A stretch of 64,000 bases of DNA from Candidatus Methanophagaceae archaeon (lineage in GTDB: Archaea > Halobacteriota > Syntropharchaeia > Alkanophagales > Methanospirareceae): positions 3,981-67,980 of the forward strand of contig PQXC01000006.1 of NCBI GenBank assembly GCA_003194435.1. The letters run 5' to 3'. The translations under genes and the position numbers were made by a program. Below, piece by piece: positions 7,174 through 60,679 of this stretch. How positions within the stretch are numbered: the first letter of the stretch is position 1; each line of letters opens with the position of its first letter. Below the pieces are notes generated by a model that did not search any database, was not told the DNA's origin, and was given only the letters and a program-made list of their open reading frames with translations.

Positions 7174-7198
7174 TCTTTTCACCTCCAAAAAGATTTTT

Positions 7199-40034: not shown

Positions 40035-41480
40035 TCACCCATTTTTATTTTTGCGTTTCCTCTTATCCCTCTCTAACAGCACATACCCCACCAGTGCGAG
40101 CAAGCCAGAGGCGAACAGGATGAGCGTTGACAGTTCGGGAATTGGATAGCCGGGGTCAGTAGAAGGGCTTTCGATATAAGAGTCGCTGCCGGCTTCGGCT
40201 TTATAGTATATCTGGAGTTCATCCGTTGGGCAATCCCATGATAATCTAACAGCGAGCCAATCGCCAGTACTGAAATCCTGTGTTGTTGATACGTTGTCTT
40301 CACAGGTTATGTCCCATAGATGTTTAGTTTCCGCTGCTGTTAACTGCTCGGTGTGGCTGGCAATAACGGTTACATCTCCGGTGCCTTTTTCCAGCCTGCA
40401 AATCTCAACCGTGAGGTTGTGCCCTATTTCATCATCTTCTATCGCTTCTGTCCGAATATGCGCTTTCCACGGGTTATCGCCAAATCCGAGTCCGCATTCC
40501 GCTCCGGTATCCGCATAGAACCATGCCACTCCGGTATAACTCAGGTTGAAATATTCGCCTGTGCCGCTTCCTGAACCTTTGTGCATCAGGTTGTCCTTCG
40601 CGTGCGTCTTACTATCGTTCGCGTTTGGTGCATCATCGGGTTTAGCTTCAGGGGTAAGATACCATGTCTGCTGCTTTGGAACCGGAAGCGTAATGTTGGA
40701 ATCGAATCTCCCGCCTTCGTTGACCTCTTCTGATGATACCTTGAACTCAACAATCTTTGACTGACTTCCATCCGGACTTCTGACATCGAGCTGCAGTGTC
40801 TCGCCTGTAACTATATCAATGCCATGTCTAAGCACGAGCTGGTAGTAGTTAGAAGTGGGTGAAGTCTCAGCCTGCCATTCCTCGCTCGTGTTCAGGTTTG
40901 TTATGTTAACTCTGGGATTATTGCATTCACTGCCGTTTTCGTAAGAAACATATCCATATACGAGGAACGGACTTGAGGGCTGTATAATTTCTACACTTCC
41001 ATTCTTTACGTTGGCAGGGATAGGATAACCATCAGGGTCGCTTAAAATGACGCCCTCCAGGTCGCTAAGGTGAAGCCCACTGAGTCCACGTTCAGCAATC
41101 GCTTGAAATGTAATTGTTGTAAGCACACCTGAAGTGTTCACGCCGCTCGTTGTTTTCTTCCGTGATTCAGCATACTCGACCTTGCCAAGGGTATTATTTA
41201 TTTCGTCTATCAATAGATATGTCTCAGCACCATCCTGACTGAGAAATGTGCCTTGGGTAAGTCCAGTTGCGTTCAACAGCGTATTATTAAAATACAGCGT
41301 GTAGCTGGCACCAAATACTTCACTTCCTTCCGGATAAACTGTAATATTAACTGTGAATATCTCCCCTGATGCGACTTTTTGACATGAAGGCTCAACGCTT
41401 ATCGTCGCAGCAGAAGCAGTCTGAGAAATAGCCAGAATTACCACCATTATTATCATTATCGCTGCAATTGTATATTTCAT
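40035..41480 (-). CDS. Secreted cohesin-domain surface protein with NITNLNTSE..NYYQ module and C-terminal TM/basic anchor
   Basis: Signal peptide. Cohesin domain FTVNITVYPEGSEVFGASYTLYFNNTLLNATGL.... C-terminal LILFASGLLALVGYVLLERDKRKRK. Confidence 0.8.
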   Translation of the reverse strand: MKYTIAAIMIIMVVILAISQTASAATISVEPSCQKVASGEIFTVNITVYPEGSEVFGASYTLYFNNTLLNATGLTQGTFLSQDGAETYLLIDEINNTLGKVEYAESRKKTTSGVNTSGVLTTITFQAIAERGLSGLHLSDLEGVILSDPDGYPIPANVKNGSVEIIQPSSPFLVYGYVSYENGSECNNPRVNITNLNTSEEWQAETSPTSNYYQLVLRHGIDIVTGETLQLDVRSPDGSQSKIVEFKVSSEEVNEGGRFDSNITLPVPKQQTWYLTPEAKPDDAPNANDSKTHAKDNLMHKGSGSGTGEYFNLSYTGVAWFYADTGAECGLGFGDNPWKAHIRTEAIEDDEIGHNLTVEICRLEKGTGDVTVIASHTEQLTAAETKHLWDITCEDNVSTTQDFSTGDWLAVRLSWDCPTDELQIYYKAEAGSDSYIESPSTDPGYPIPELSTLILFASGLLALVGYVLLERDKRKRKNKNG

Positions 41481-41543
41481 CTTTTATTTTGCCACCTCCT
41501 GAATTTCTTACTTATAGCACTTCTCATCGGCGATTTTTCAGTT

Positions 41544-42821
41544 TCATTCCTCTTCCCTCCACAACTTTATTGCAGGTATCCAGCCTGTGTATTCTTTCCC
41601 GTTCGCATCTGTGAACTCGTCACATATTATTTTACCGCCTGTTGCGTTGTATTCCCCGGGATGATGGATAATCTGCGGATACGAGCCTGTGCGAATGGTG
41701 TAGTTGTATTCTTTACATGGTTCAAGCGTGAAACTTGTGTTGAACGTAAGGTTATGCCAGTCGTCTGAATATCCACTCCAGTTTGCGTGTGCATCCACGC
41801 CGTTGCCCCATATCCTCGCATATTCAGTGTGCCCGCCAGTGCCAGGGCATGCATAAGTGTATATCCTGTTCACTTCTATCTCATGGGCAGGTATTATTGT
41901 TCCGTTATGCACGCCCATTATGCTTGGATACGGGCTATCTGGCGCACCGGTGTCAAAGATACCAAGTTTTGCTTCAAGTGTGATATTGAAGTTGAAGAGC
42001 CCGCCGTTGTTGATATCATTTTGGGTTACCATGTAGTTTGTAATATTTGACAGTTTTCCATCCGGGCTTGTAACGTTGAACTGCAATATCTCGCCTGCAA
42101 CTATGTCAGTGCAAGGTGTAAGCACGAGCTGATAGTAGTTATAATCAGGATGTGTCTCAGCTTTCCATTCCTTGCTTGTGTTCAGACTTGTGTTCAGGTT
42201 AGTTATGTTAACCTTTGGATTATTGCATTCGGTGTCATTTCTGTAATAAACATATCCAAATATCAAGAATGAGCTGGATGGCTGTGCGATTTCTACGCTT
42301 CCATTGCTAACATTGGTCAAGATAGGATAACCATCAGGGTCGCTTAAGATGACGCCCTCCAGGTCGCTAAGGTGAAGCCCACTGAGTCCACGTTCAGCAA
42401 TCGCTTGAAATGTAATTGTTGTAAGCACACCTGAAGTGTTCACGCCGCTCGTTGTTTTCTTCCGTGATTCAGCATACTCGACCTTGCCAAGGGTATTATT
42501 TATTTCGTCTACCCATAGATATGTCTCAGCACCATCCTGACTGAGAAATGTGCCTTGGGTAAGTCCAGTTGCGTTCAACAGCGTATTATTAAAATACAGC
42601 GTGTAGCTGGCACCATATACTTCACTTCCTTCCGGATAAACTGTAATATTAACTGTAAATATCTCCCCAGATGCGACTTTTTGACATGAAGGCTCAACAC
42701 TCACTACTGGACTTGCCTGTGATTCAATCGCTGTTGGCACGGCAAAGCCAATTTGTGCAAATATAAATATAAATAAAGCTATAATGCCAGTTCCAATTGC
42801 GGTGGTCAAAACTCTTTTCAT
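41544..42821 (-). CDS. Secreted cohesin-domain protein (paralogue, 110-aa stretch identical to 55025..55813)
   Basis: Signal peptide plus cohesin domain. C-terminal beta-rich domain. Confidence 0.8.
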   Translation of the reverse strand: MKRVLTTAIGTGIIALFIFIFAQIGFAVPTAIESQASPVVSVEPSCQKVASGEIFTVNITVYPEGSEVYGASYTLYFNNTLLNATGLTQGTFLSQDGAETYLWVDEINNTLGKVEYAESRKKTTSGVNTSGVLTTITFQAIAERGLSGLHLSDLEGVILSDPDGYPILTNVSNGSVEIAQPSSSFLIFGYVYYRNDTECNNPKVNITNLNTSLNTSKEWKAETHPDYNYYQLVLTPCTDIVAGEILQFNVTSPDGKLSNITNYMVTQNDINNGGLFNFNITLEAKLGIFDTGAPDSPYPSIMGVHNGTIIPAHEIEVNRIYTYACPGTGGHTEYARIWGNGVDAHANWSGYSDDWHNLTFNTSFTLEPCKEYNYTIRTGSYPQIIHHPGEYNATGGKIICDEFTDANGKEYTGWIPAIKLWREEE

Positions 42822-42839
42822 TTTTTATTTTTTTACCCC

Positions 42840-43697
42840 CTATTTTTCTTTTTTAAATATCAAATACGACGCTATCACGAACAATCCCGCTGTTACAAAC
42901 ACAGCCTCAAATCCCGGTATTTCCTGTCCCTTATTCTCTTTTTCCCCTGACATAGGCAATGAAACGATTGAAGCCGGCGACGACGTGGCTATGGTTGGAG
43001 TTGGATATGGTGATGGATATGGTGATGGTGAGGGAACAGAGTTTATAGTGGATGTCTGCATTGGTGTAGAATCCGGTGTCTCCGTAGGTGAGGATATAGA
43101 TGCAGGCGTTGATGTTGGTGTTGACGTTACAGATGCGTCTCCACTGTTGCTATCCCCACTTTCCGAAGTTGGTGTTGGCGTAGACGTGGGCGTATGAGTA
43201 GGTGTTGGTGTAGTTCCTATATTGCATGTTCCATCACCGATTAAAACGCCTGCGATCTCAAAACCGTAAGGGTCGCTTAATATTACTTCACTCAAATTTA
43301 GACTGCTCGTTCCGGGTTTCGTTGCATTAAAGGTAATGGTTGCAAGCACACCGGGGTTAGTCACTCCACCGCTACCTATTCTGTATTCGCTGAAATTGAC
43401 CTTGCCGTTGGAATTATCAATCTCATTTACCATCACATTGCCTCCGAGAAAGGGTCCTTGGTTTTGACTCAGCGCCTGTAATAAACTATTATCAAAGAAT
43501 AAGGTGTATTGAGCACCGAATATCTCCTCGCCTTCAGGATATATGGTTATGTTCACTGTGAACTTCTCCCCGGGTGAAACTTGTAGATATGGCGGTTCAA
43601 CACTTATTTTTGGTCCTGGCATTCCAAGGCTCGTTTGTATGAGTGAAGAGACAAATAGGGGAGCAATGGCAATCGCTGCGACCATAGCTTTGTTCAT
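42840..43697 (-). CDS. Cohesin-domain protein with Thr/Pro-rich linker and PGF-CTERM archaeosortase sorting signal
   Basis: Cohesin FTVNITIYPEGEEIFGAQYTLFFDNSLL. TPTPTHTPTSTPTPT linker. IPGFEAVFVTAGLFVIASYLIFKKEK. Confidence 0.8.
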   Translation of the reverse strand: MNKAMVAAIAIAPLFVSSLIQTSLGMPGPKISVEPPYLQVSPGEKFTVNITIYPEGEEIFGAQYTLFFDNSLLQALSQNQGPFLGGNVMVNEIDNSNGKVNFSEYRIGSGGVTNPGVLATITFNATKPGTSSLNLSEVILSDPYGFEIAGVLIGDGTCNIGTTPTPTHTPTSTPTPTSESGDSNSGDASVTSTPTSTPASISSPTETPDSTPMQTSTINSVPSPSPYPSPYPTPTIATSSPASIVSLPMSGEKENKGQEIPGFEAVFVTAGLFVIASYLIFKKEK

Positions 43698-43703
43698 TTT
43701 TTA

Positions 43704-44720
43704 TCATCTCCTCCTTTTTCTTTTTATGATAAAATATGACATTGCAAGCAAGCCAATTGTTGCTGTGATAGCTCCAAATCCTGATGTAGGTGAAGCTGCT
43801 GGTGAAGCAGCAGGGGTGAGAGAAGGTGGAGGTGACAATGCAGGAGGTGAAGGGGTTACTGTTATTGGAGGTGTGGGTGTGAGCAATGAGGTTACGGGGA
43901 AGTAAATCTTCCATTCTTCTATACCACCAAGCATATTATAAACATGTTCAAAACCATGCTGGACAAGTATTTCGCTTGCTGTTCTGCTTCTGCTACCGGT
44001 TTTACAATAAACAATGATTTTTTTAGATTTGTCCAATTCGCCAATTCTGTTTCCCAATTCAGGTAAAGGTATAAGTTTAGCTTCAGGTATATGCTCACTA
44101 TCGTATTCCTTTTTCGTTCTGACATCCAGCAAAATGATTTCTTCCGGCTCTTCTTCCAACATCTCGTGTGCTTTTTCAACTGTGATATCAATAACAGCGG
44201 GCTCACCTGTAACTCCTCCTACGGTACATGTTCCACCGCCAATTTCACTCTCAAAAACTTTCCCATTTATGTCGCTTAATATCACATCGCCCAATGTTAA
44301 ATCGCTCGTTCCGGAGGTTCCAATTACCTCAAAGCTAATAGATGCTAATACACCAGAGTCTGATATGCCTCTCTCAGCAGTTCGTGTCTCGCCATATTCG
44401 ATCTTGCCAATTGTATTGTTTATTTTGTTTATCACTTCGATTGCATTCGTGCCATCCTGACTTAGAAAAGTCCCCTTGGTTTGCGATGTTGCATTGAGCA
44501 AATTGGGGTCGAAATATAAATCATATTGAGCGGCATATATCTCCTCTCCTTTTGGGTCCACCACGATTTCGATTGTGAATGTCTCCCCCTGCGATACCTC
44601 AACACTTGCTGGCGACACGCTTATACTTGGTCCGGGTGCGGCTTGCACCAGCGAGCTAAACGCCAGATTTAGTAGCACAAAAAATACCAAACCCATACAT
44701 ATTGCCCTTCTTATTTCCAT
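43704..44720 (-). CDS. Cohesin domain - rhodanese (sulfurtransferase) domain - Pro/Thr linker - PGF-CTERM-like anchor fusion protein
   Basis: Cohesin FTIEIVVDPKGEEIYAAQYDLYFDPNLL. Rhodanese with active-site loop VYCKTGSRS. C-terminal SGFGAITATIGLLAMSYFIIKRKRRR. Confidence 0.8.
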   Translation of the reverse strand: MEIRRAICMGLVFFVLLNLAFSSLVQAAPGPSISVSPASVEVSQGETFTIEIVVDPKGEEIYAAQYDLYFDPNLLNATSQTKGTFLSQDGTNAIEVINKINNTIGKIEYGETRTAERGISDSGVLASISFEVIGTSGTSDLTLGDVILSDINGKVFESEIGGGTCTVGGVTGEPAVIDITVEKAHEMLEEEPEEIILLDVRTKKEYDSEHIPEAKLIPLPELGNRIGELDKSKKIIVYCKTGSRSRTASEILVQHGFEHVYNMLGGIEEWKIYFPVTSLLTPTPPITVTPSPPALSPPPSLTPAASPAASPTSGFGAITATIGLLAMSYFIIKRKRRR

Positions 44721-44919
44721 TTTTTATCACTTTTTCATTTTTTATATTTTTATCTATTTAAAAGCTTTTCGATTTTTTTCTTTATTGTTGTTAGGATTAT
44801 GAAAGAATAACCCTATATATAGCTATAAGGAAAAGGGGAGGGGAAGAGTGGGGGGAGTATATCGGTCGGTGGACGCCCGCTAAAAATAGTGCATGAATGT
44901 TCAGCGATTCCCCTTTTAA

Positions 44920-45144
44920 CTTTTTATTTTATTCTCTGCTTTCGGTTTAGCATATCCATCGGATTTCGGGAGCAAGGTGATAGGGCTCATATTTGGACTC
45001 CCGGCTCTTTTCCTCGTGAATGCTTTCCGGCTTTTCTTCCTTTCTCTTATCCTTCTTTATTATCCCGGGATTTTTGATTATGCGCATACATATCTGTGGC
45101 AGACGGTCATCTTGATAATGATATTTGTGGCATGTCTGGTGTAG
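44920..45144 (+). pseudogene. Exosortase/archaeosortase-like fragment (NxxR motif region) without start codon
   Basis: Frame +1 reads ...GLIFGLPALFLVNAFRLFFLSLILLYYPGIFDYAHTYLWQTVILIMIFVACLV, resembling the conserved aNgxR...H transmembrane core of exosortases. Neighbouring frames (44889..45077, 45236..45652) are also hydrophobic. Confidence 0.3.
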
Positions 45145-45235
45145 TTGGAATTTGTAGTGAAGGTGAGGGTGAAGGATACGGCTTCTTCCTTTTTTCTCCG
45201 TTTCATGGCTATTTCTGAACTATGATTATAGCTTA

Positions 45236-45652
45236 TTGATTGCGAAGGTCGCGGAACCAATCGTGAATATGGTGCTTCCGGAATCAAGTTTAGCAAATTT
45301 AAAAGAGATGAGATACACTGGTGTAGAAGTGATAATAACACCGGAATTGATGACCGCTACTTTCAATTTCGTTCCTTTTATCGGGCTTATTTTCGCAACG
45401 AGAGCAATTAGTTTTAAGAATAAGATGAAGGCTATGGGAATAGGTTTGCCTATAATAGTAATTGCACATATCTTTTTCCTTGTGTATAAATCTCTTACGG
45501 ATCCGAACCTTGGAGTCCCTTATGCTTTTAAAGCCATGCTCACAGTGCAATTGATAGGACAATATTTCCTCCCTTTTGGCATCTGGCTTGCATTTGCATG
45601 TAGTGGGGATAGAGGAGCATGTGAGGAAGAAGCATGGGAAGAAAGGCGTTGA
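45236..45652 (+). CDS. Hydrophobic hypothetical protein (possibly the C-terminal part of the degraded archaeosortase-like gene)
   Basis: ORF with three predicted TM segments. Confidence 0.3.
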   Translation: MIAKVAEPIVNMVLPESSLANLKEMRYTGVEVIITPELMTATFNFVPFIGLIFATRAISFKNKMKAMGIGLPIIVIAHIFFLVYKSLTDPNLGVPYAFKAMLTVQLIGQYFLPFGIWLAFACSGDRGACEEEAWEERR

Positions 45653-45881
45653 AGAAGGAAGAAGTTAAGGCAGTGTTAGAGTTGGAGGCGGAGAAAGCCG
45701 ATTTCGTCTCTATGATGTTAGAGAAATTGCATTTAGGTAAGGTTATGGAGCGGATAAGGAATGTGCTTAAGAGAATAAAAGAGAAGGAAAAGTAAAGGAG
45801 ATGCGACTCCTGAGTCTCTAAATTCTTCAGTTCAAGTTCAAAGAGAAGTTTTTATATGCGCATTGCCAATATTATTCACGA

Positions 45882-46244
45882 GTGGTAGAAATGGAACATT
45901 CGTGGATAGAAGTTGAAATATCAGACCTTGAGAGGAAGAAATCCGCAAAGCTAAACGCATTGGTTGATACTGGAGCGAGCTTGGCAGTTTTGCCAGAAAA
46001 AATAGCTGAGGAGCTTGGGATAGAACCTATAAGCGAGGAGAAAGTTTCGACAGGAGCAGGAGAGATAAAGGTAAAGAGGGGTAGAGCCTGGATAAAGCTG
46101 AAGGGGAAGGAAGATGCCTTTCCCATCTGGATTTCGGGTTTTATAGACAAGGTTTTGCTTGGAGTGGTTGTTTTAGAATCCTTTGGCTTTGATGTAGATC
46201 CTGCAACCGGAACATTGAAGGAAAGACCACTGCTTTTATATTGA
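45882..46244 (+). CDS. Retropepsin-like (clan AA) aspartic protease
   Basis: ALVDTGASLAVLP matches the D-T/S-G-A catalytic motif and hydrophobic flanks of the retropepsin fold. 120 aa. Confidence 0.6.
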   Translation: MVEMEHSWIEVEISDLERKKSAKLNALVDTGASLAVLPEKIAEELGIEPISEEKVSTGAGEIKVKRGRAWIKLKGKEDAFPIWISGFIDKVLLGVVVLESFGFDVDPATGTLKERPLLLY

Positions 46245-46489
46245 CGGATAGATTGACTTGCATCTCGCTCTTGGATTAGTTAGTTTGGCGATTGCTAAAA
46301 GGCTTCTTGAGAAGTGATTCGAGTTTACAGAATTTTCTAAAGAAGAGTTCATACGGGTTTTTTTCCTTCATTAAGAAAGAACTCGAGCTAATTCCTCTTG
46401 AAACCTAAGAGAAAAAAAGGAATTTTTTAAAGTTTACTATTTTCCACTTTTCCCTATTGCCTATTGCCTATTGCCCATTTCGCTTATTT

Positions 46490-47494
46490 TTACCATGCAA
46501 TATTCCCCCAATTTGCTCCTATTATCACTGCATCAAGTATGTTCACGATACAATCATTGTTAAGGTCTCCCCTGTCAGCCCTGTCTTGTCCTTCCCAGCA
46601 GAAATTACCGCACGTGCATTTTTCGCCCCATTCACGCCCTACTATTACTGCATCAAGGATATTCACCCTGCCGTCCCCGGTTGCGTCTCCCGCAATATAG
46701 ACGTTAACTTGTATAATAGCCGTGTTTGCGAGACCACCATCATCCTTTACTGTTAAACTGACATTAAATGGTTCGTAGCCTGTTCCATTCCATTTACAGC
46801 TCGAATAAGCATGCTCTATCGCCGGACCTTCGCCAGAATGTGTGTCTCCGAAGTCCCATGTATAGCTTGTGATGGCATCGCCATCCGGGTCATAAGAAGC
46901 GGAAGCGTTAAAGATGGTTTGGCATGGATAATAGGAGCCAACGTTATTGTAGCGGTGCGCAGAGAATGCGATTGCAACAGGGGGGAAGTTTATAAATGCA
47001 GTGCCATTATCTACTGCCGCCGGTATGGTAGTTTCATCAGGACCAGCTTCCTTCAGCACATTGATGCTTAGGTTCAATGCACTTGTCTCTCCATGATTGC
47101 CAACCGCTTTTAATGTGATGTCTGCGAATTTGACATCGCCGTATAATCCATCGCCAAAATCTGCCCCCACTGCTTTGACACTACCTGTCGAATTGTCAAT
47201 AACTGCATCAAATAAATCGAAATCGCTGTTCGCTGCCGATACCACATGAACCACAGATGGGTCGAAAGCGAGGCTTATATCGGCAGCACCCAAATATGAT
47301 ACATTGTTGATCATGATACTCGTGACTGCAGTTTCGTCAGGCTTCATAAAGGCATCGCTTATTGATACAGTAGTTTCAGAAGCAGAAGCTGAAGCTGAAG
47401 CAGACAGAGTGAGGAATGAGACAAAGAGCAGAAATAGTGCAGTATACAACACTGCTACTCCCGGTCTTTTCTTCTTCCACATATCGTTCTTCAT
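46490..47494 (-). CDS. Secreted protein: cohesin-like N-domain + PKD domain + C-terminal double dockerin
   Basis: PKD YDPDGDAITSYTWDFGD. Dockerin repeats GDATGDGRVNILDAVIVGREWG and GDLNNDCIVNILDAVIIGANWG. Start set near MKNDMWKKKRPG (signal peptide). Confidence 0.75.
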   Translation of the reverse strand: MKNDMWKKKRPGVAVLYTALFLLFVSFLTLSASASASASETTVSISDAFMKPDETAVTSIMINNVSYLGAADISLAFDPSVVHVVSAANSDFDLFDAVIDNSTGSVKAVGADFGDGLYGDVKFADITLKAVGNHGETSALNLSINVLKEAGPDETTIPAAVDNGTAFINFPPVAIAFSAHRYNNVGSYYPCQTIFNASASYDPDGDAITSYTWDFGDTHSGEGPAIEHAYSSCKWNGTGYEPFNVSLTVKDDGGLANTAIIQVNVYIAGDATGDGRVNILDAVIVGREWGEKCTCGNFCWEGQDRADRGDLNNDCIVNILDAVIIGANWGNIAW

Positions 47495-47516
47495 TCTTAT
47501 TTTCACCTCCTTCCAT

Positions 47517-49532
47517 TTAGTGAAGCGTTTCAAAGCCCGATTCACCAAGTACGTGTTTTGAAAGATACATCGCATCATACAGTGTTACCACTCCGTTACC
47601 GCTGACTTCTCCTACGCTTTCGGTCATCGTTTCAAATCCGGGTTTTCCAAGCACGTGCTTGGCAAGATACATGGTATCATAAATATCCACCTCACCATTT
47701 TCACTCACATCCCCGTTTAGTATGACAATTAGGGGTATGTTCACCGATGCGTTTACGTTTCCAAATATGTCGGTTGCGTATACCGTGAGGTTATGTGGCA
47801 GGTAGCTCCCATTATATATCGCCGTTCCAATCGAAGCATTAACAGTTACAGTCCATATATCAGTGCCGGGGATGCGAGTCATTGGCTGGTCAGGCGAGCC
47901 ACCCAGTGATGAGAGGTTGATCGAGACACTGGCAACACCACAATCGTCTGTTACTGTAACGTTTAATTGTGATGTTTCGCCCCACCTCAGCTCAGAATCG
48001 GTATCCTCGGGAATAGATGGTGGATTTGCTGTTGGATTTGTTACCAGTGGTGGTGTAACCTCAGCGATGACAAAAGTCCCGTTGTGTGTGGTTGCAGGTA
48101 TAGGAATTTCATCGGGACCTGCATCCTTCAACTCATTGATGGTAATGTTCAGAGTAGACGATTCGCCTGCACTTCCTACCGCCTTTAGCGTGACGTCTGC
48201 GAGTTTCACATCGCCATTGAGACCCGGAGAAGAAGTCTGAAATGCACCTATTCGTGTTATGCCGGAAGAATTATCAATTGCAGACTCCAGGAAATCGAAA
48301 TCGCTATTGTTAACCGCGATGACATGAACCACTGATCGATTGTAGGATAAGAAGATATCCGCAGTGCCGACATTGGTTATATCGCTGATGATAATCGAAG
48401 TGGTAACATTTTCTCCTGATACTGCACTTGCATCACCGATACTGATAACAATATCAGCAAAAGTCTTGAATGCGCGTTCAGAGCTCTGAGCGGAGTTGTT
48501 GCTCGCGTCGGTGCTGTTCACCACGTAATAATAAGTGGTATTTGAGATGAGATCGGCAATTGAGATGCAGTGATAAGTCACGAGAGATGCATTATAAACG
48601 ATTTTCGTGTAATTCCCGGGTTCTGTGCCGTATTTGAGCATGCTGTCACTCGGCTCATCAGTTTCCCAGGTTATGATTGCAGAATCTTTCGCTGTTGGTA
48701 TTGCACTGATATTGGTGATGACAGGCGGAGAAACATCTGGCGGATATAAAGTGATGTTCTGCATGAAACCACCGGCATTCATCTCCTGTTGCGTCACTAT
48801 ATGGTCGAAGACAGAGAAGTTGCCCAGATTATCACTGGCGTTAAAATGAAGTATGTTTCCTTCGCTTATATGAGCGAAGTTTGTTAATACCTGATAATAA
48901 TTAGAGTTTTCGTTTGTCTCTGCTATGAATATTTCTGAGGTGTTCACATTTTCTATCGTAACGTTTGGATTGTATACCGGAGAGCCGTCGTCATAATTAA
49001 CGAAACCAGAGATGTTAAAGTGTGTCGCATTAATTTCTACTGTTCCATTATTGACCGAAATGCCAGAAATTTCATAACCGAGAGGGTCGCTTAATACAAT
49101 ATTGCTCAGATTTAAACTGCACGTTCCGGGTTCCATCGCCTTAAAGGTAATCGTTGCAAGTACACCGGGATTGAACACACCGTACTCAACACCCGTTCTC
49201 ATTTCACCATACTCCGCTTTGCCGATGGTGTTGTTGATTACATTCGTTATGTCCATTGTTGATGCGCCGTCTTGACTGAGAAATGGACCCTTGACCTGTT
49301 CAATCCCTTTTAGAAGCGTATTATTGAAATACAAATCATATTGTGCACCCATTACCTCAACACCTGCTGGATTTACTGTTATATTCACTGTAAAGAGATC
49401 ACCCTGCAGGACGTTTTGATAAGATGGTTCAACGCTTACTACTGGTGCTGCATGAGCCGATGTAACACAGCAAATTAGAATGAATAGAGATACTGTTGTT
49501 ATTCTAACAATGTCTTTGATAGTATTTCTCAT
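47517..49532 (-). CDS. Secreted cohesin - NITxNxT/NYYQ module - fibronectin-III - cohesin-like - dockerin protein
   Basis: Start set at SD-ATG (MRNTIKDIV..., signal peptide). Cohesin LFTVNITVNPAGVEVMGAQYDLYFNNTLL. FN3 ITWETDEPSDSMLKYG. C-terminal dockerin repeats NGDVSENGEVDIYDTMYLAKHVLG. Confidence 0.8.
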   Translation of the reverse strand: MRNTIKDIVRITTVSLFILICCVTSAHAAPVVSVEPSYQNVLQGDLFTVNITVNPAGVEVMGAQYDLYFNNTLLKGIEQVKGPFLSQDGASTMDITNVINNTIGKAEYGEMRTGVEYGVFNPGVLATITFKAMEPGTCSLNLSNIVLSDPLGYEISGISVNNGTVEINATHFNISGFVNYDDGSPVYNPNVTIENVNTSEIFIAETNENSNYYQVLTNFAHISEGNILHFNASDNLGNFSVFDHIVTQQEMNAGGFMQNITLYPPDVSPPVITNISAIPTAKDSAIITWETDEPSDSMLKYGTEPGNYTKIVYNASLVTYHCISIADLISNTTYYYVVNSTDASNNSAQSSERAFKTFADIVISIGDASAVSGENVTTSIIISDITNVGTADIFLSYNRSVVHVIAVNNSDFDFLESAIDNSSGITRIGAFQTSSPGLNGDVKLADVTLKAVGSAGESSTLNITINELKDAGPDEIPIPATTHNGTFVIAEVTPPLVTNPTANPPSIPEDTDSELRWGETSQLNVTVTDDCGVASVSINLSSLGGSPDQPMTRIPGTDIWTVTVNASIGTAIYNGSYLPHNLTVYATDIFGNVNASVNIPLIVILNGDVSENGEVDIYDTMYLAKHVLGKPGFETMTESVGEVSGNGVVTLYDAMYLSKHVLGESGFETLH

Positions 49533-49589
49533 TTCCCATTTCTCACCTCCTTTCAAACTTTTTCGTTTGTTTTTTACCCCCGTCTTTTA

Positions 49590-49659
49590 TCTTTTTTTAC
49601 AAGTTCCCCCAAAAAAGAAAAAGGGAAAAATTTTATTTTTTGTTGTCTATTCCCTATTC
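49590..49659 (-). terminator. Conserved 3' element (GGGGG-A/T-rich-CCCCC hairpin plus T-tract) downstream of a dockerin gene
   Basis: Paralogous to 56413-56494, 60680-60772 and 61930-61993. Confidence 0.35.
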
Positions 49660-52600
49660 TTACCATGCTACATGCCCCCAGTTTGCTCCTATTATAACGG
49701 CGTCGAGGATGTTTATCACGCAATCGTTGTTCAGGTCTGCTTTGTCTTTCTGCAGGTCATCCCACAGATAACCCTCACAGTTGTCACAAGGGTTCGTTGT
49801 AGAACAATGTTCACCCCAGTGCTTTCCTACGTACACTGCATCCAGGATATTCACCCTGCCGTCTCCGTTCGCATCCCCTGCTATGTAAACGGTAACATCA
49901 AAGGAAGTTGAGTTGCTCATTTCCGGGCATCCGTCATCTGTCACCGTTAATACCGCACTGAATAGCACGTAATCTCCATTTGGGTTACCGAATGGTTCCC
50001 ACTGCCATGACTTATATTTGTGCTCTTTGCAAGCGCATCCGTTTAGGTTACCACCTTCACTGGTTCCATACTGCCCGTCACCGAACGCGAACCGGATATA
50101 CGAGATGTTGCCACCTTTATTACCGAAATCCGGGTCCCATGAGCACGAGCATATAGTCGTGTTGCACGGATATTTCTTTGCCACGTTGTTGTACCGGTGC
50201 TTTGATACTGCAATTGCAATTGGTGGTGTGTTGTGGGAAATTGTGACGGTGCCATTAAAGATGTTTATTTGGTCGTACGATTCGTCTGTGTCAGGATTGA
50301 CAATGATCACATCACTGAGGTTGAGGTTAGCGAGTGATTCGCGTTCCCCAATTGCGGTGAACTGAATAGTTGCCACGGTGCCCTTTTCATTTACACCGCT
50401 CTCCCCTATTCTCGTCTCTGCGTATGAAATCTCGCCCGTGGCATGGTCTATGCTATTGGTGACCACGATTGTCTCACCGGAAAGACCGAGGAAAGGTCCT
50501 TTTGTCTGCGTCTCTGCTCTTACTACACTGGTGTTATAATGGAGATAATACTGGACACCATAGACCGAGTTCCCGTGAGGGTCAACCGTTATGTTCACGT
50601 CAAACTGGTCTTGTGGTTGAACAGTAACATTATTTGGTTCAACACTTATTTCAACGAGTACTCCTCTCACGGTTATAGTGATATTCTCGAAGTCAGTTAG
50701 TTCGCCATCGGTGACCTCGAAATGCACATCGTGATAGATACCTGCCTGTCCGAAAGTGGGCGTCCATGCGAATCTTCTCGTGCTCGGGTCAAAAGTTGCC
50801 CCAGGGGGCAGGTTGGATGCGGAGTATATCAGTGCATCGCCATCAGGGTCGGTAGCATGGATAGTAAATGCGAGCAAAGAATTCTCGTTAGCGAGCTTGT
50901 CTCCTATTTCTTCGAGCACCGGAGCACGGTTGACGTTATTCACTGTAATCCGCACGGTCTCATTATCAGTTCCACCTTTGCCATCGTTAACGCCAAAATC
51001 CACGTGATAAACACCGGCATCGTCATATGAAGGCATCCAGTGCCCGATACCAGTTGAAGGATTGAAATCAGCGAACAAATCCGTGCGGTTGCAATAATAG
51101 GTGAGCGTGTCACCATCCAGGTCGGTTGCATTAAGAGCAATCATGAGAGTTTCATTCTCGTTTATTCCTGTATCGCCAATGGGAGCGAGTTCAGGCGGTC
51201 TGTTCACATCGTTCACCGTTATCTTAATAGTTTTGTTATCAATCCCGCCTTTAGCGTCGCTAACGCCGAACTCAATGTAGTAAATGCCTGCGTCGTCATA
51301 ATCGGTAATCCAGTGCCCGATACCTGTTGAAGGCTTGAAATCGGCGAATAAATCCGTGCGATTGCATGAATATGTAAGCGTATCACGGTCGAGGTCGGTT
51401 GCATTCACATCTATCGTTAGCGTTTCACATTCATTTATTTCTCGGTCTCCTACGGGTTCGAGTTCCGGTGGTCTATTTTCATTTTTCACGGTTATCTTCA
51501 CCGTCTCGTTATCAATCCCGCCTTTGCCGTCTGAAACACCGAAATCAACGCAGTAAGTGCCTGCATCGTCGTAGTCGGTAGTCCAGTGTCCGATGCCCGT
51601 TTCCACGTTGAAATCAGTGAACAGGTCCGTGCGGTTGCATGAATAAGTGAGTGAATCACCGTCAGGGTCGGTTGCATTAACGTCAATCGTTAGCATTTCC
51701 GTTTCATTCAGTTCCACATCTGCAACAGGTTCAAGTTCAGGTGCCCGGTTCACGTTATTTACCACAATCGTGATGTCTTCGTAATCGGTTAATTCACCGT
51801 CGCTGACCTCGAAGTGGACATCGTGATATGTCTCCGACTGTTCAAAAGAAGGAGTCCACGAGAATGTCCTCGTGTCCGGGTTGAAGGTTGCACCATCAGG
51901 TAGATTCGATGCTGAATATGTCAGTGTGTCGCCATCAGGGTCGGTGGCGTTTATCGTGAATTCGAGCAGTTCGCTCTCGTTCACCGCTTTGTCGCCTATC
52001 TGCTCAAGAACAGGCGGTCTGTTCGTGCCACCTACCACGATTGTAATGTTCTCCCAGTCGCACAATTCGCCGTCGCTGACCTCGAAGTGCACGTCATGAT
52101 ATATCCCCTCCTGCTCAAAAGAAGGAGTCCACGAGAATGTTCTCGTGTTGGGGTCGAAACTCGCTCCCTCTGGGAGATTCGATGCTGAATATGTCAGTGT
52201 GTCGCCATCAGGGTCAGTGGCGTTTATCATGAATTCGAGCAGTTCGCTTTCATTTACCATCTTATCGCCTATTGGTTCAAGAACAGGTGGTCGGTTCTTG
52301 TTATGAACGATTATTTTTACTGTCTCGTTATCAATTCCGCCTTTACCATCAGAAACACCGAAATCAACGTAATAGGTACCTGCATCATCATAATCAGCAG
52401 TCCAGTGTCCAATGCCGATAGCAGTATCGAAATCAATGAACAGGTCTGTACGGTTGCATGAATAGGTGAGCGTATCATGGTCGGGGTCGGTAGCATCAAC
52501 ATCAATCATAAGCGTTTCGCTTTCGTTTAGTTCTCTGTCGCCAACGGGTTTAAGCACTGGCGGTCTGTTCACATCGTTTACCGTTATCTTAATGGTCTCG

Positions 52601-54591
52601 TTATCAATCCCACCTTTACCATCAGAGACGCCAAAGTCAACATAGTATGTGCCTGCGTCGTTATAATCAGGGGTCCAGTGCCCGATACCAGTTGAAGGGT
52701 TAAAATCAGTGAATAAATCTGTTCGATTGCAGGAATAAACAAGCACATCATTGTCGGGGTCGGTTGCATTCACATCTACCGTGAGCGTTTCATTCTCATC
52801 AATTGTTCTATCACCTACTGATTCAAGCACTGGCGGTCTGTTCACATCTTTCACCATTATCTTAATGGTCTCGTTATCAGTCCCACCTTTACCATCAGAG
52901 ACGCCAAAGTCAACATAGTATGTGCCTGCATCGTTATAATCAGGGGTCCAGTGCCCGATGCCCGTTAAGGAGTCAAAATCAGTGAATAAATCGGTTCGAT
53001 TGCAGGAATAAACAAGCACATCGTTGTCGGGGTCGGTTGCATTCACATCCACCGTGAGTGTTTCATTCTCATCAATTGTTCTATCACCTATTGATTCAAG
53101 CACCGGCGGTCTGTTCACATCATTCACCGTTATCTTCACGGTCTCATTGTCGCTGAATTCACCATCAGAAACGCCGAAATCCACATGATAAACACCAGCA
53201 TCGTCATAGGAGGGTGTCCAGCTCCAGAGAGTGGCAGTGCCGTTGATGGGTGTAAAAGCGCCAAATGAGGCGTTACTGCTGAATGTTAGCACGTCTCCAT
53301 CGGGGTCGGATGCGGTAATCGTTATATTAAGGGCAAAGCCCTCGTCAACGGTTCTGGGACCGATGGGATTGAGCACTGGCGGCATATTAACATCAAAAGC
53401 ATATAGCTTACCGCCACAGGTTCCGATATAGAGAGTGCCATCGGATGCTATTGCGGGCGAAGAATAACAGATTATCCCGGTGTTATATCTCCACAGAAGC
53501 GAGCCATCAGGGTTTATTGCATAAACATACCCATCTTGTGAGCCTACATAGATGATACCGGAGGCATCAATTGCAGGTGATGAGCTTATGCCGCCGTCAG
53601 TGGTATAAGTCCATTTAAGCGAGCCATCGGGATTTATTGCATATAATTTCCTGTCGCACGAGCCGACGTAAATAGTGCCGTCAGAACCAATAGCAGGTGA
53701 CGATACAATCCAGCAGCCTGTTGGATATGTCCACTTAAGTGTGCCATCGGGATTTATTGCATATAATTTCCTGTCATACGAGCCGACGTAAATAGTGCCG
53801 TCAGAGCCGATGGCAGGCGAGGACTTTGTCATCCCGACGGTATATTTCCATTTGAGCGAGCCGTCAGGATTTATTGCATATAGTTTTCTATCAAACGAAC
53901 CTATATAGATGGTGCCGTCAGAGCCAACAGCTGGTGAGGATTGGATTGAACATCCTGTCTGATAACTCCATTTAAGACTGCCATCAGGGTTTATTGCGTA
54001 CAGTTTTCCATTGTTATTGCCTATATAAATAGTGCCATCAGGGGCTATAGCAGGCGATGTGAGGACGAAGCCCCTGGATTTTTTCCACTTAGAGTCATAG
54101 AACTCCCATTTCTCCGTGCCGTTCGGATACAGAGCATATAATCTGCGATTCCAGCATCCTACGTATATCGTGCCATCCGAAGCTACCGCTGGTGTGGAAT
54201 CAATGTAATCAACCAGGCCATGATAAAAATAAAGAGGGGGCGACCAGTGCCATTTCTCCGTGCCATCCGGGTTAATAGCATACAATCTCGAGCGAGTATA
54301 CCAGTGCCAGCCGCTTGTGCCTATGTATATTGTCTCGTCTGGAGCTATTGTTGCAGAACTAAATATCCCTCTACCTCCTCCGGTATAAAATGTCCATTTC
54401 ACCGTTGCCGTGTTTGGTCCGTAATAGGGACTTAACCCTGTGTGGCTCAGGTCATGATGGAACATGGGCCATGGCGAAGAGGCGAGTTGAGCAGTAGCTG
54501 CTGGAGTTACTGACCACAAGATTACACAGATTGCCAGGAGATTACCAAAAGAACTTTTTCTCGCGAAATCTCGTGGTTTTTTATCTCTCAT
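49660..54591 (-). CDS. Giant secreted protein (1643 aa): 8-bladed PQQ-like beta-propeller + about 11 tandem cadherin/Ig-like repeats + cohesin domain + PKD-like + C-terminal double dockerin
   Basis: Propeller repeats DGTIYIGS..KLYAINPDGSLKW. 92-aa repeats NRPPVLE.IGD....E.L...VNATDPDGD.L.YS...DLF.DF. Cohesin FDVNITVDPHGNSVYGVQYYLHYNTSVV. Dockerin GDANGDGRVNILDAVYVGKHWG and ADLNNDCVINILDAVIIGANWGHVAW. Confidence 0.85.
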   Translation of the reverse strand: MRDKKPRDFARKSSFGNLLAICVILWSVTPAATAQLASSPWPMFHHDLSHTGLSPYYGPNTATVKWTFYTGGGRGIFSSATIAPDETIYIGTSGWHWYTRSRLYAINPDGTEKWHWSPPLYFYHGLVDYIDSTPAVASDGTIYVGCWNRRLYALYPNGTEKWEFYDSKWKKSRGFVLTSPAIAPDGTIYIGNNNGKLYAINPDGSLKWSYQTGCSIQSSPAVGSDGTIYIGSFDRKLYAINPDGSLKWKYTVGMTKSSPAIGSDGTIYVGSYDRKLYAINPDGTLKWTYPTGCWIVSSPAIGSDGTIYVGSCDRKLYAINPDGSLKWTYTTDGGISSSPAIDASGIIYVGSQDGYVYAINPDGSLLWRYNTGIICYSSPAIASDGTLYIGTCGGKLYAFDVNMPPVLNPIGPRTVDEGFALNITITASDPDGDVLTFSSNASFGAFTPINGTATLWSWTPSYDDAGVYHVDFGVSDGEFSDNETVKITVNDVNRPPVLESIGDRTIDENETLTVDVNATDPDNDVLVYSCNRTDLFTDFDSLTGIGHWTPDYNDAGTYYVDFGVSDGKGGTDNETIKIMVKDVNRPPVLESVGDRTIDENETLTVDVNATDPDNDVLVYSCNRTDLFTDFNPSTGIGHWTPDYNDAGTYYVDFGVSDGKGGIDNETIKITVNDVNRPPVLKPVGDRELNESETLMIDVDATDPDHDTLTYSCNRTDLFIDFDTAIGIGHWTADYDDAGTYYVDFGVSDGKGGIDNETVKIIVHNKNRPPVLEPIGDKMVNESELLEFMINATDPDGDTLTYSASNLPEGASFDPNTRTFSWTPSFEQEGIYHDVHFEVSDGELCDWENITIVVGGTNRPPVLEQIGDKAVNESELLEFTINATDPDGDTLTYSASNLPDGATFNPDTRTFSWTPSFEQSETYHDVHFEVSDGELTDYEDITIVVNNVNRAPELEPVADVELNETEMLTIDVNATDPDGDSLTYSCNRTDLFTDFNVETGIGHWTTDYDDAGTYCVDFGVSDGKGGIDNETVKITVKNENRPPELEPVGDREINECETLTIDVNATDLDRDTLTYSCNRTDLFADFKPSTGIGHWITDYDDAGIYYIEFGVSDAKGGIDNKTIKITVNDVNRPPELAPIGDTGINENETLMIALNATDLDGDTLTYYCNRTDLFADFNPSTGIGHWMPSYDDAGVYHVDFGVNDGKGGTDNETVRITVNNVNRAPVLEEIGDKLANENSLLAFTIHATDPDGDALIYSASNLPPGATFDPSTRRFAWTPTFGQAGIYHDVHFEVTDGELTDFENITITVRGVLVEISVEPNNVTVQPQDQFDVNITVDPHGNSVYGVQYYLHYNTSVVRAETQTKGPFLGLSGETIVVTNSIDHATGEISYAETRIGESGVNEKGTVATIQFTAIGERESLANLNLSDVIIVNPDTDESYDQINIFNGTVTISHNTPPIAIAVSKHRYNNVAKKYPCNTTICSCSWDPDFGNKGGNISYIRFAFGDGQYGTSEGGNLNGCACKEHKYKSWQWEPFGNPNGDYVLFSAVLTVTDDGCPEMSNSTSFDVTVYIAGDANGDGRVNILDAVYVGKHWGEHCSTTNPCDNCEGYLWDDLQKDKADLNNDCVINILDAVIIGANWGHVAW
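50330..53400 (-). repeat. Intragenic tandem repeat array, period about 276 bp (92 codons), about 11 copies of two alternating subtypes
   Basis: Consecutive protein repeats, some identical over more than 45 residues (NRPPVLES.GDRTIDENETLTVDVNATDPDNDVLVYSCNRTDLFTDF occurs twice). Confidence 0.7.
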
Positions 54592-55052
54592 TCTTCACCC
54601 TCCCATTCATCAACCACTGCGGTTATGGTTTCCACCTCCTCACTCAATCCGGTTGTTTGCGAAGTAGCATTCACGAGCACGGAATAGGGACCTGTAATAA
54701 AGTCATCAGTGACGTTCAGTATTACCGTTCCGCTCTGTCCAGCATCAAGGGTTATTTCTGATTGACTCAGCGAGGCAACACTGGCATTATCGGGATTAAT
54801 TGCAGAGAGATTGAAAGTGTCAGTTTCATTTCCGATATTCTTAATTGTAATCAGGTAGGTTGCATTGCTTCCTAAAGTTGTGGTCTGCGTGATAGTATTT
54901 ACCGTGAGAAAATCATCGGATGCAAACTCCCCAATAATCGCTGGTATTGCTACTGCTATTGTGCATACCATTGCAATGCACACCAATGCGAGGATGCTTT
55001 TTTTTCTTTTTTTCATTTTTCCTTTCATCCGCAGCAGCAATTTAACCCCCAA
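54588..55052 (-). CDS. Small secreted CARDB/DUF11-like beta-sandwich protein
   Basis: Signal/TM followed by LGSNATYLITIKNIGNETDTFNLS...GQSGTVILNVTDD. ATGA overlap with the giant gene start. Confidence 0.5.
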   Translation of the reverse strand: MGVKLLLRMKGKMKKRKKSILALVCIAMVCTIAVAIPAIIGEFASDDFLTVNTITQTTTLGSNATYLITIKNIGNETDTFNLSAINPDNASVASLSQSEITLDAGQSGTVILNVTDDFITGPYSVLVNATSQTTGLSEEVETITAVVDEWEGEE

Positions 55053-55813
55053 CCCGGAGCCCCAACTATGTAAGCACGAAGTGTTACGTAATCCATAGAA
55101 TCTATTTTTGTATTGCAGTCAACGTCCGCTGCCCATTCACTGGTTATTGTCCAACCCGGAGCTCCAACTACGTAAGCACGAAGTGTTACGTAATCCATAG
55201 AGTCTACTTTTCCATTTCCATCTACATCACCGCACATACCTATTCTCACGCTTCCATTGCTAACATTGGTCAAGATAGGATAACCATCAGGGTCGCTTAA
55301 GATGACGCCCTCCAGGTCGCTAAGGTGAAGCCCACTGAGTCCACGTTCAGCAATCGCTTGAAATGTAATTGTTGTAAGCACACCTGAAGTGTTCACGCCG
55401 CTCGTTGTTTTCTTCCGTGATTCAGCATACTCGACCTTGCCAAGGGTATTATTTATTTCGTCTACCCATAGATATGTCTCAGCACCATCCTGACTGAGAA
55501 ATGTGCCTTGGGTAAGTCCAGTTGCGTTCAACAGCGTATTATTAAAATACAGCGTGTAGCTGGCACCATATACTTCACTTCCTTCCGGATAGACGATAAT
55601 ATCAACGGTAAAATTCTCACCCGGGGGAACCTCTAAATACGCTGGTTCAACACTTATCTGCGCTGCCAATGCCGACTGCGCAAAGACACACAATGTCAAT
55701 GCTATCGCAGCAATAATTAAGCCTGTTCCTGTTCTTACTCCTGCTCCTTCTACACTACGCGTACAATTTTCCACTCCTTTTTTTCTTCTTTCTTCTTCCT
55801 TTTTTTCTTTCAT
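55025..55813 (-). CDS. Secreted cohesin-domain protein with C-terminal Cys-terminated double dockerin-like module (…GWGLNCCCG)
   Basis: Cohesin identical over 110 aa to 41544..42821. GDVDGNGKVDSMDYVTLRAYVVGAPGW repeated twice. Confidence 0.75.
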   Translation of the reverse strand: MKEKKEEERRKKGVENCTRSVEGAGVRTGTGLIIAAIALTLCVFAQSALAAQISVEPAYLEVPPGENFTVDIIVYPEGSEVYGASYTLYFNNTLLNATGLTQGTFLSQDGAETYLWVDEINNTLGKVEYAESRKKTTSGVNTSGVLTTITFQAIAERGLSGLHLSDLEGVILSDPDGYPILTNVSNGSVRIGMCGDVDGNGKVDSMDYVTLRAYVVGAPGWTITSEWAADVDCNTKIDSMDYVTLRAYIVGAPGWGLNCCCG

Positions 55814-55875
55814 TTTTTCTACTTTTCACCTCCTAACAAGCATTTAAAGAATTTGACTCACAACTTCGGCTGCTC

Positions 55876-56094
55876 ATGCCAAAACTGAATGAGTCCAGTG
55901 GCGAAATAAAAGCCATACACACTCGCATAGAAGGTGTGGAGAAGGAAATCGGGGGTTTGAGGAGAGAAATGATGACAAAGTTTGAAGCGGTGGATTCAAG
56001 GTTCGACACGCCGGAAGCGAAGATACCAGTGATGGAGAAGATGGCAGAGTTTAAAGTCCGTCTTGCTGAGCTTGAGAAGAAAGTAACTGCATAG
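55876..56094 (+). CDS. Small coiled-coil protein (72 aa), uncertain
   Basis: Heptad-rich IEGVEKEIGGLRREMMTKFEAVD...KVRLAELEKKV. Preferred over the antisense low-complexity ORF 55833..56342. Confidence 0.3.
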   Translation: MPKLNESSGEIKAIHTRIEGVEKEIGGLRREMMTKFEAVDSRFDTPEAKIPVMEKMAEFKVRLAELEKKVTA

Positions 56095-56412
56095 TGCTTA
56101 GGATTTGGCAGTTGGGATTTAGAAATTACGCCAATAGGCGTTTGACGGATGCAGGATGCCGGATACATGATACATGTTTGACTTGCATCTTCACAACTTG
56201 TGGAATTTGAAGTCGAAAGCGAAGAGAAACTGTCCCCAGTTAAAGTTCTATCGCCCAGAGAAGTTTTAAAACTACTATAAGAATTATTTCCTTTGGCGCG
56301 TTTTTCCTTCAGATCCCCGCTTTTTTTCCCGTTCTTCTTCATACTTTAGTCCTACTCCTTTGCATTTTACGTTTTATATTTTGCTCTTTGCATTTTTTAT
56401 TGTTTATCGTGT

Positions 56413-60627: not shown

Positions 60628-60679
60628 CTTATTATATCATCACCTCCTTCTTGTTCTTGTTCTTCCTTTATACGCTTTT

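Follow-up and report, generated by a model that had tools for sequence, protein, structure and literature searches.

Introduction

Rhodanese domains with a six-residue active-site loop are reportedly of the sulfurtransferase type, as opposed to the CX5R loop of the phosphatase type, and inactive rhodanese domains are said to be found at the N terminus of MAP-kinase phosphatases and in some ubiquitin hydrolases. A rhodanese may also work outside the cytoplasm, as PspE of E. coli is periplasmic and active (PMC2593051). Here, we analysed a 64,000-nucleotide stretch of DNA from a Candidatus Methanophagaceae archaeon (GenBank assembly GCA_003194435.1, contig PQXC01000006.1, positions 3,981 to 67,980 of the forward strand), called the window throughout, and within it a gene on the minus strand whose product joins a cohesin to a rhodanese domain.

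Anaerobic methanotrophic archaea (ANME) encode extensive, uncharacterised dockerin and cohesin proteins and PGF-CTERM anchors, and binding experiments on them have been called for (Chadwick et al. 2022, PMC9012536). The ANME cell surface is the meeting place with sulfate-reducing partners, and the cohesin/dockerin proteins there are without an assigned function (Chadwick et al. 2022). The text of that study does not mention rhodanese, and its S4 Data list a cohesin protein with rhodanese at residues 180–273 (PMC9012536). Our literature searches returned no description of a cohesin–rhodanese fusion, of an ANME-1 rhodanese, or of rhodanese–dockerin or rhodanese–PGF-CTERM proteins; the cohesin–rhodanese fusion is present in public annotation and undiscussed. 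From the comparisons given below, it is reasonably probable that the protein is an anchored cohesin scaffold in which the rhodanese would have a Cys-independent role, with sulfur transfer perhaps a lineage-specific extra.

Results

Domain architecture and active site of the cohesin–rhodanese protein

The 338-residue protein matches, at 100% identity, hypothetical protein C4B56_04470 from the metagenome-assembled genome (MAG) of a Candidatus Methanophagaceae (ANME-1) archaeon. From the N to the C terminus it consists of a predicted Sec-type signal peptide, a cohesin, a single rhodanese, a Pro/Thr/Ser stalk, a C-terminal hydrophobic helix and a KRKRRR tail. Pfam Cohesin (PF00963) matched at residues 34–143 (E 1.8e-11, 44.9 bits against a cut-off of 24.1) and Pfam Rhodanese (PF00581) at residues 181–271 (E 4.7e-21, 75.6 bits against 22.2). 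An AlphaFold model built from a 70-sequence alignment had a mean predicted local distance difference test score (pLDDT) of 84.4 and a predicted template modelling score of 0.72, with pLDDT above 90 over residues ~31–278, which span both domains. A low-confidence helix was modelled at residues 2–20, residues ~280–317 were disordered and a C-terminal helix was placed at 318–336. In Foldseek searches against the PDB, the N-terminal domain retrieved type I cohesins (6kgc_A, E 8.7e-13, template modelling (TM) score 0.80) and the Archaeoglobus fulgidus cohesin 2xdh (E 1e-12), and the second domain retrieved the rhodaneses 3tp9_A (root-mean-square deviation 1.1 Å over 104 columns), 3gk5 (TM score 0.86), 6mxv and YgaP 5hbo. 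The cohesin–rhodanese architecture is thus real and far beyond chance, and the order of cohesin, complete single-domain rhodanese, Pro/Thr linker and anchor that the initial annotation had read from the DNA was borne out, both folds being supported by Pfam, AlphaFold and Foldseek.

The catalytic Cys named in that annotation was confirmed as well by phmmer against PDB sequences, where C239 aligned with the catalytic Cys of CRTGGRS (3tp9) and CRAGGRS (5ve3); GlpE 1gmx, Sud 1qxn and PspE 2jtq were also among the matches. The loop of the window copy, CKTGSRS, has the six-residue sulfurtransferase pattern (C-x-x-G-x-R/T, then S/T/A). The NCBIfam equivalog models for particular rhodaneses (NF001195, NF007627, TIGR02981) scored below their cut-offs (GlpE 56.3 against 102; PspE 46.5 against 102 and 40.2 against 126.3), as did rhoda_near_glyco (69.8 against 145). 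Because the loop is intact and Lys240 and Arg244 are suited to anions, a Cys239 persulfide formed from thiosulfate or polysulfide is chemically plausible in the window copy. Catalysis might then be the main function in Cys-retaining lineages, where the protein would be a surface sulfurtransferase or persulfide carrier like Sud or PspE, taking sulfane sulfur off thiosulfate or polysulfide for delivery to a partner that the cohesin keeps close. This explanation is possible but doubtful; the canonical six-residue loop, aligning with those of solved active-type rhodaneses, and the preference for anionic substrates expected of K240 and R244 speak for it, and the comparison of homologues bears on it from the other side.

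Variation of the catalytic residue across the family

When the same fusion was sought in other genomes, at least 336 homologues were found at E ≤ 1e-3, and nearly all of the 120 listed carry Cohesin and Rhodanese, often with PGF-CTERM in addition. The named homologues come from ANME-1/Methanophagales MAGs or bear coarse labels, and it is on these source names in the homologue list that the taxonomic breadth of the family rests; scanning GTDB genomes with this one protein yielded just two ANME-1 loci, besides two Staphylococcus rhodaneses of no relevance. The family counts given here and below were taken from a MAFFT alignment of the best 120 of the 336 homologues.

The catalytic column of this alignment contains Cys in 50 sequences, Ser in 68 and Asp in 1, and the Ser codons TCG/TCC are one nucleotide from the Cys codons TGT/TGC. 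Fitch parsimony on a neighbour-joining tree required at least 16 changes of the catalytic-residue state. Pairs of homologues that are 81–83% identical differ in Cys against Ser with the loop otherwise unchanged (CKTGGRS and SKTGGRS, for example), and orthologues that occupy the corresponding syntenic position are of the Ser type (P0100, SQSGKIS; P0084, SKNGADS). In 21 Ser-type proteins there is no Cys anywhere in the mature region. The column of R244 is also mixed (R 43, D 33, I 21), and Cys-type members too often have Asp, Glu or Ile at this position.

The rhodanese domain as a whole showed the highest mean pairwise identity of the protein (0.63), above the cohesin (0.59) and the Pro/Thr linkers (0.33–0.41), and among Ser-type proteins alone the order was the same (0.627 for rhodanese, 0.570 for cohesin). 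The least conserved part of the domain is its active-site loop (identity 0.49), and the fold-core residues L198, D199, Y238, L252, G265 and G266 are invariant or nearly so. Because Cys has repeatedly given way to Ser while no other part of the protein is as well conserved as the rhodanese, the conserved function of the module appears to be Cys-independent. We concluded that selection would be maintaining the rhodanese domain and not its persulfide chemistry, and that sulfur transfer is probably not the core job of the cohesin–rhodanese family.

These values also bear on two other explanations. The first takes the rhodanese for a decaying relic that serves only as an inert spacer, in keeping with the repeated loss of the catalytic Cys and the variable loop; it is highly improbable, since the domain is the most conserved region even among Ser-type proteins and has many invariant residues, and a spacer would be expected to diverge like the Pro/Thr linkers. 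The second is the catalytic explanation introduced above, against which stand the Ser or Asp at the catalytic site in 57% of the best 120 homologues, positional orthologues included, and the frequent replacement of R244 in Cys-type members. The genomic setting adds to this. No sulfur-metabolism genes were found among the open reading frames (ORFs) of the 64-kb window, and neither polysulfide reductase, Sox, Dsr or other sulfur genes nor molybdopterin oxidoreductase/Psr-like genes were present in the window or in three syntenic loci, L005 (Ca. Methanospirare jalkutatii), L006 and L008 (both metagenome contigs). Our literature search found no paper linking ANME-1 to rhodanese. The handling of persulfide or polysulfide at the cell surface, which the initial annotation had suggested, is undercut by the Ser of the 68 homologues, and the window free of sulfur genes also speaks against it.

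A further Cys, Cys249 (window codon 43974–43976), occurs only in homologues with Ser239, in 21 of 68 as against none of the 50 with Cys239, in four separate clades (raw Fisher p 2.7e-6, uncorrected for phylogeny). Residue 249 is one helix turn below the invariant S245, and Cys249 could be a relocated thiol. A C165–C239 disulfide or relay was considered as a family trait and rejected, as the same Cys at the cohesin end is found in a rhodanese-less neighbour and co-occurs with Ser239 in 29 sequences.

Related exported rhodaneses

With the rhodanese domain alone as query, phmmer returned 39,305 matches at E ≤ 1e-3 from 1.84 billion representative proteins. The best matches from outside the family mostly have signal or lipoprotein-type N termini, and tandem multi-rhodanese proteins are among them. 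Related exported domains, including those of the examined loci L009 and L010, are 51–68% identical to the window domain. The ANME-1 GoMg1 protein P0142, annotated as GlpE, has a signal peptide, a rhodanese (68% identical) and PGF-CTERM without a cohesin, and its gene lies at a different locus, adjoining Peripla_BP_2 (periplasmic binding protein) and CobN-like genes. Rhodanese is combined with dockerin in P0196, P0201, P0216 and P0236, the first of which lies within a dockerin island of its own, with NosD/beta-helix in P0244, P0260 and P0122, and with both cohesin and dockerin in P0180; P0122 is a giant of 3538 residues with three rhodanese domains. The earlier view that an extracellular sulfurtransferase is highly unusual did not survive this comparison: PspE of E. 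coli is periplasmic (PMC2593051), Sud of Wolinella is known, and the nearest relatives of the window domain are largely exported. Exported and apparently catalytic rhodaneses are common in this setting, the cohesin-fused family being the one that tolerates Cys loss.

Fusions of rhodanese to thioredoxin-fold domains (TlpA/AhpC-TSA-like, CxxC) were found in P0223, which has a PGF-type tail, and in P0248, P0239 and P0055, the last a Ser-type cohesin–rhodanese with a WCAPC thioredoxin-like extension. Such fusions can be counted for the catalytic explanation, along with the Cys kept in 334 of 364 rhodanese domains of exported relatives and the activity of the periplasmic PspE (PMC2593051). They can also be taken for an extracytoplasmic thiol-redox element, in which Cys239 would cycle through sulfenate, persulfide or mixed disulfide states and oxidise, reduce or tether Cys-containing surface proteins. 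Candidate targets would be two dockerin proteins encoded near the gene (55025–55813 and 60034–60627), which end in NCCCG and LNCC, and related modules fused to TlpA/thioredoxin-like CxxC domains, some of them PGF-tailed (P0223, P0248, P0239), are in keeping with the idea. Overexpressed PspE can reportedly replace DsbA in E. coli. The loss of Cys is family-wide, however, the thioredoxin-like extension of P0055 goes with Ser at the rhodanese site, and there is no thioredoxin-fold gene in the cohesin/dockerin island around the gene, so we consider a thiol-redox role improbable.

Predicted export, stalk and membrane anchor

The protein begins with a MEIRR n-region (two Arg) and a hydrophobic core (best 12-residue Kyte–Doolittle mean 2.98) followed by VQA↓AP, and an AQA/VQA motif before Ala-Pro is kept across the homologues. 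At the other end, an 18-residue hydrophobic stretch lies between SGF and KRKRRR. Of two conserved N-glycosylation sequons, one is present in 84 and the other in 92 of the 120 homologues. Because the signal-like N terminus, the stalk, the tail helix with KRKRRR after it and the conserved sequons point the same way, we strongly infer that the cohesin and the rhodanese are placed outside the membrane, which supports the display outside the cell predicted in the initial annotation. If instead the N-terminal segment were an uncleaved anchor, the rhodanese would be cytoplasmic. That export topology was deduced from sequence features leaves some room for such an arrangement, but we find it scarcely credible: by the positive-inside rule, KRKRRR after the C-terminal helix argues against it, as do the AQA↓A kept throughout the family, the extracellular nature of cohesins, Pro/Thr stalks and PGF-type tails, the two conserved sequons, and the tails of orthologues, which pass the PGF-CTERM model.

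The description of the tail as a PGF-CTERM-like anchor held in part. The tripartite layout is there, with a Thr/Pro/Ser-rich stalk, a hydrophobic helix and a basic tail at the extreme C terminus, but the motif is SGF and the tail of the window copy matched neither Pfam PF18204 (PGF-CTERM) nor TIGR04126; its best match, Heimdall-CTERM, was below the cut-off (21.5 bits against 24). Homologue P0003, which is 88% identical, has PGF in its tail (…WQIPGFEAIT…), and this tail passes PF18204 (21.9 bits against 18.8); across the family PGF was counted 83 times, GGF 16 times and SGF 6 times. The window tail looks like a degenerate PGF-CTERM from which a small deletion appears to have removed the Pro. 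No exosortase or archaeosortase domain was detected among the window ORFs scanned. Without archaeosortase processing the protein would stay a type I membrane protein in the same orientation.

Genomic neighbourhood

The coordinates of the gene, of the parts of its product and of its surroundings are collected in Table 1. Because GTGAT and TTTTAAATA sit upstream of the first ATG, the long start of the ORF is favoured.

Table 1. Features of the cohesin–rhodanese gene and its surroundings (window coordinates).
Feature	Position	Strand	Basis or remark
Complete gene	43704..44720	(-)	ATG start, TGA stop, 338 residues (ORF list)
Predicted signal peptide, residues 1–27 (MEIRRAICMGLVFFVLLNLAFSSLVQA↓A)	44640..44720	(-)	Inferred cleavage site
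Cohesin domain, residues 28–167	44220..44639	(-)	Pfam PF00963, Foldseek, translation
Short inter-domain linker, residues 168–177	44190..44219	(-)	9–31 residues in homologues, often Pro/Thr-rich
Single rhodanese homology domain, residues 178–275	43896..44189	(-)	Pfam, phmmer, Foldseek
Active-site loop C239-K-T-G-S-R-S	43986..44006	(-)	Translation; Cys codon TGT
Pro/Thr/Ser-rich stalk, residues 276–311	43788..43895	(-)	P12 T6 S6 A5; disordered in model, pLDDT 42–60
C-terminal anchor, residues 312–338, TSGFGAITATIGLLAMSYFIIKRKRRR	43707..43787	(-)	SGF motif, hydrophobic helix, KRKRRR tail
TATA-like element TTTTAAATA	44755..44763	(-)	~39 nucleotides 5' of ATG; read from sequence, inferred
Possible Shine–Dalgarno GTGAT	44726-44730	(-)	5 nucleotides 5' of first ATG; read from sequence, inferred
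Downstream partner gene, 285 residues: signal peptide, cohesin, stalk, PGF-type tail	42840..43697	(-)	Pfam Cohesin
Island of cohesin and/or dockerin surface-protein genes, candidate docking partners	40035..64000	(-)	Pfam

The junction to the downstream partner gene is operon-like, with TGA, 6 nucleotides and ATG, and AGGAGG lies within the last codons of the upstream gene. Beyond this pair, Pfam found cohesin and/or dockerin in ORFs at 40035, 41544, 46490, 47517, 49660, 55025, 56495, 60034 and 61994, and candidate dockerins are encoded by all of these except the first two. The cohesin of the window protein is 45–50% identical to five other island cohesins. The docking into a cohesin/dockerin scaffold predicted in the initial annotation needs correcting: the protein has a cohesin and no dockerin, and as a membrane anchor it would take up dockerin-tagged partners rather than dock itself. 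Since the inter-domain linker is variable and often Pro/Thr-rich, cohesin and rhodanese appear to be independent beads, and the same variability weakened the idea that the rhodanese might serve as an "X-module" and brace the cohesin rigidly.

Other ANME-1 contigs have also kept the island. In all three syntenic loci compared, a gene for a cohesin-only anchored protein lies 3–4 nucleotides 3' of the cohesin–rhodanese gene. The upstream neighbours in L006 and L008 are a PKD–dockerin gene (with a cohesin match as well in L006) and a Pur_ac_phosph_N gene, and in L005 the preceding gene encodes a DUF3344/CARDB/cohesin/dockerin protein. DUF3344/CARDB/dockerin giants are close by in L005 and L006, and the window has the same gene set.

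In the window, the cohesin–rhodanese gene is separated from the upstream cohesin–PKD–dockerin gene by a gap of ~1.7 kb (44721–46489), as against only ~57 nucleotides in L006 and L008, and this stretch may be an insertion. It contains two plus-strand ORFs: 45236–45652, with a hydrophobic product of 138 residues that matches no family, and 45882–46244, with 120 residues and a match to the clan AA aspartic protease model TIGR03698 (57.8 bits against a cut-off of 57.35).

Several other features of the island were noted, all on the minus strand. The adjacent cohesin proteins encoded at 40035–41480 and 41544–42821 share a near-identical N-terminal cohesin region of ~170 residues (SVEPSCQKVASGEIFTVNITVYPEGSEV…), which suggests a recent tandem duplication, and their C-terminal halves differ; the former ends in a different sorting-signal-like tail, PIPELSTLILFASGLLALVGYVLLERDKRKRKNKNG, with a weak PEP-CTERM match (11.6 bits), and the latter is without an anchor. 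The dockerin proteins at 55025–55813 and 60034–60627 have Cys-rich ends right after the dockerin (…APGWGLNCCCG and …APGWTLNCC), and a second dockerin subtype of the island ends in …DLNNDC[IV]VNILDAVIIGANWG[HN][IV]AW; the two tail subtypes point to at least two dockerin specificity classes. ORFs 46490–47578 and 47517–49556 overlap by 62 nucleotides, and the true start of the former is probably a downstream Met, because a long extension that is not signal-like precedes MKNDMWKKKRPGVAVLY…. A 154-residue ORF within the island (54588–55052) has a weak likeness to S-layer/"choice-of-anchor" domains (PACE-CTERM-PROT, 28.2 bits against a cut-off of 110).

The remainder of the window is housekeeping in nature, with genes for Hsp70, thermosome, DnaJ, aIF2, MCM, CbiD, ThiDN, RACo and radical SAM proteins, and an Rfam scan of the window detected two tRNAs and no other RNA elements. 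Among the housekeeping genes are an insertion sequence-type integrase (rve and HTH_21; 28068–29003, plus strand) and an OLD-family AAA_15/TOPRIM protein (5377–7188, minus strand), which look like mobile-element or defence genes unrelated to the cohesin–rhodanese protein.

Discussion

A sequence of events can be proposed from the features described above. The protein would be secreted by the Sec pathway and then held on the outside of the membrane, either by its own C-terminal helix, in the manner of a type I membrane protein, or through a lipid anchor, should an archaeosortase accept SGF. A glycosylated Pro/Thr stalk would hold the domains off the membrane. The cohesin would capture dockerin-tagged proteins of the island, so that the protein would act as an anchoring scaffold beside its cohesin-only operon partner. 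The rhodanese would form a separate bead between cohesin and stalk, for which Cys-independent binding of a ligand or protein, or a structural role, seems most likely, and sulfur transfer would be at most a lineage-specific addition in Cys-retaining copies.

Several points weigh against this proposal. The window copy and its closest clade retain the textbook catalytic loop. In the relatives, Cys was kept in 334 of 364 rhodanese domains, in 11 of 11 that are dockerin-tagged and in 10 of 11 with an xGF-CTERM anchor, and it can be argued from this retention and from the thioredoxin-fold fusions that the exported rhodaneses of these organisms are often catalytic. The tree on which the changes of state were counted is a simple neighbour-joining one whose sequences come from metagenomes, and the cleavage of a signal peptide and the processing by an archaeosortase are both presumed steps.

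A more far-reaching variant would be a surface sulfur relay in Cys-retaining ANME-1, in which the Cys239 persulfide is handed to a dockerin-tagged partner on the adjacent cohesin. We regard it as speculative and quite unlikely; if true, zero-valent sulfur would be processed at an archaeal surface inside methane-oxidising consortia, and the switching of Cys to Ser, sometimes with a new Cys249, would track the sulfur chemistry of the habitat. The scaffold with a Cys-independent rhodanese, which we prefer, has a wider bearing of its own. Because it is conserved and syntenic and can readily be recognised, the cohesin–rhodanese family offers a concrete entry point for mapping the pairing of dockerins with anchors at the ANME cell surface. 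The alternation of Cys and Ser within one orthologous family is a natural experiment in which an enzyme fold would be becoming a binding module, and domain annotation alone is an unsafe basis for calling a protein an "extracellular sulfurtransferase". The recurrence of exported archaeal rhodanese modules with dockerin, PGF-CTERM or thioredoxin-fold partners suggests a sulfur or thiol chemistry outside the cytoplasm that has gone unstudied.

Comparison with known systems

The protein resembles the anchoring scaffoldins of the cellulosome (OlpA, OlpC and SdbA of Clostridium thermocellum) and the A. fulgidus cohesin 2xdh in its type I-like cohesin fold, and the scaffoldins also in that the cohesin is joined by a flexible linker to a surface anchor and is encoded among dockerin-bearing proteins. 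It differs from the scaffoldins in having an archaeal PGF-CTERM-type tail in place of SLH repeats or a sortase signal, a single cohesin, and a rhodanese inserted before the stalk. The presumed cargo encoded in the window differs too, as it consists of Ig/PKD, CARDB/DUF3344, NosD beta-helix and PQQ-propeller proteins and not of the glycoside hydrolases of the cellulosome. At its extreme C terminus the protein is laid out like archaeosortase A substrates such as the S-layer glycoprotein of Haloferax volcanii, with a stalk rich in Thr, Pro and Ser followed by a short motif, a hydrophobic helix and a basic tail, and the tails of its orthologues pass PF18204. The window copy differs in bearing SGF where such substrates have PGF, and the models do not recognise it.

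Like PspE (2jtq) and Sud of Wolinella succinogenes (1qxn), to which its sequence similarity is E 3e-9, the window protein has a single rhodanese whose six-residue loop holds one active-site Cys and which would lie outside the cytoplasmic membrane. Unlike them, it is membrane-anchored and cohesin-fused, there is no Psr-type partner gene in the window, and most of its orthologues are without the Cys. In this last respect the family approaches the inactive rhodanese domains, as the fold is kept with Ser or Asp in place of Cys in 69 of the 120 members, which implies a binding or regulatory role. Those inactive domains are eukaryotic and cytoplasmic, whereas here, within a single archaeal family of extracellular proteins, closely orthologous members have now Cys and now Ser, the window copy still having Cys. 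A further comparison is with the exported rhodaneses P0196, P0201, P0142, P0244 and P0122, which like the window protein bear a signal peptide and belong to a cohesin/dockerin or PGF-anchored surface setting; they differ from it in having no N-terminal cohesin, and they almost always retain the Cys.

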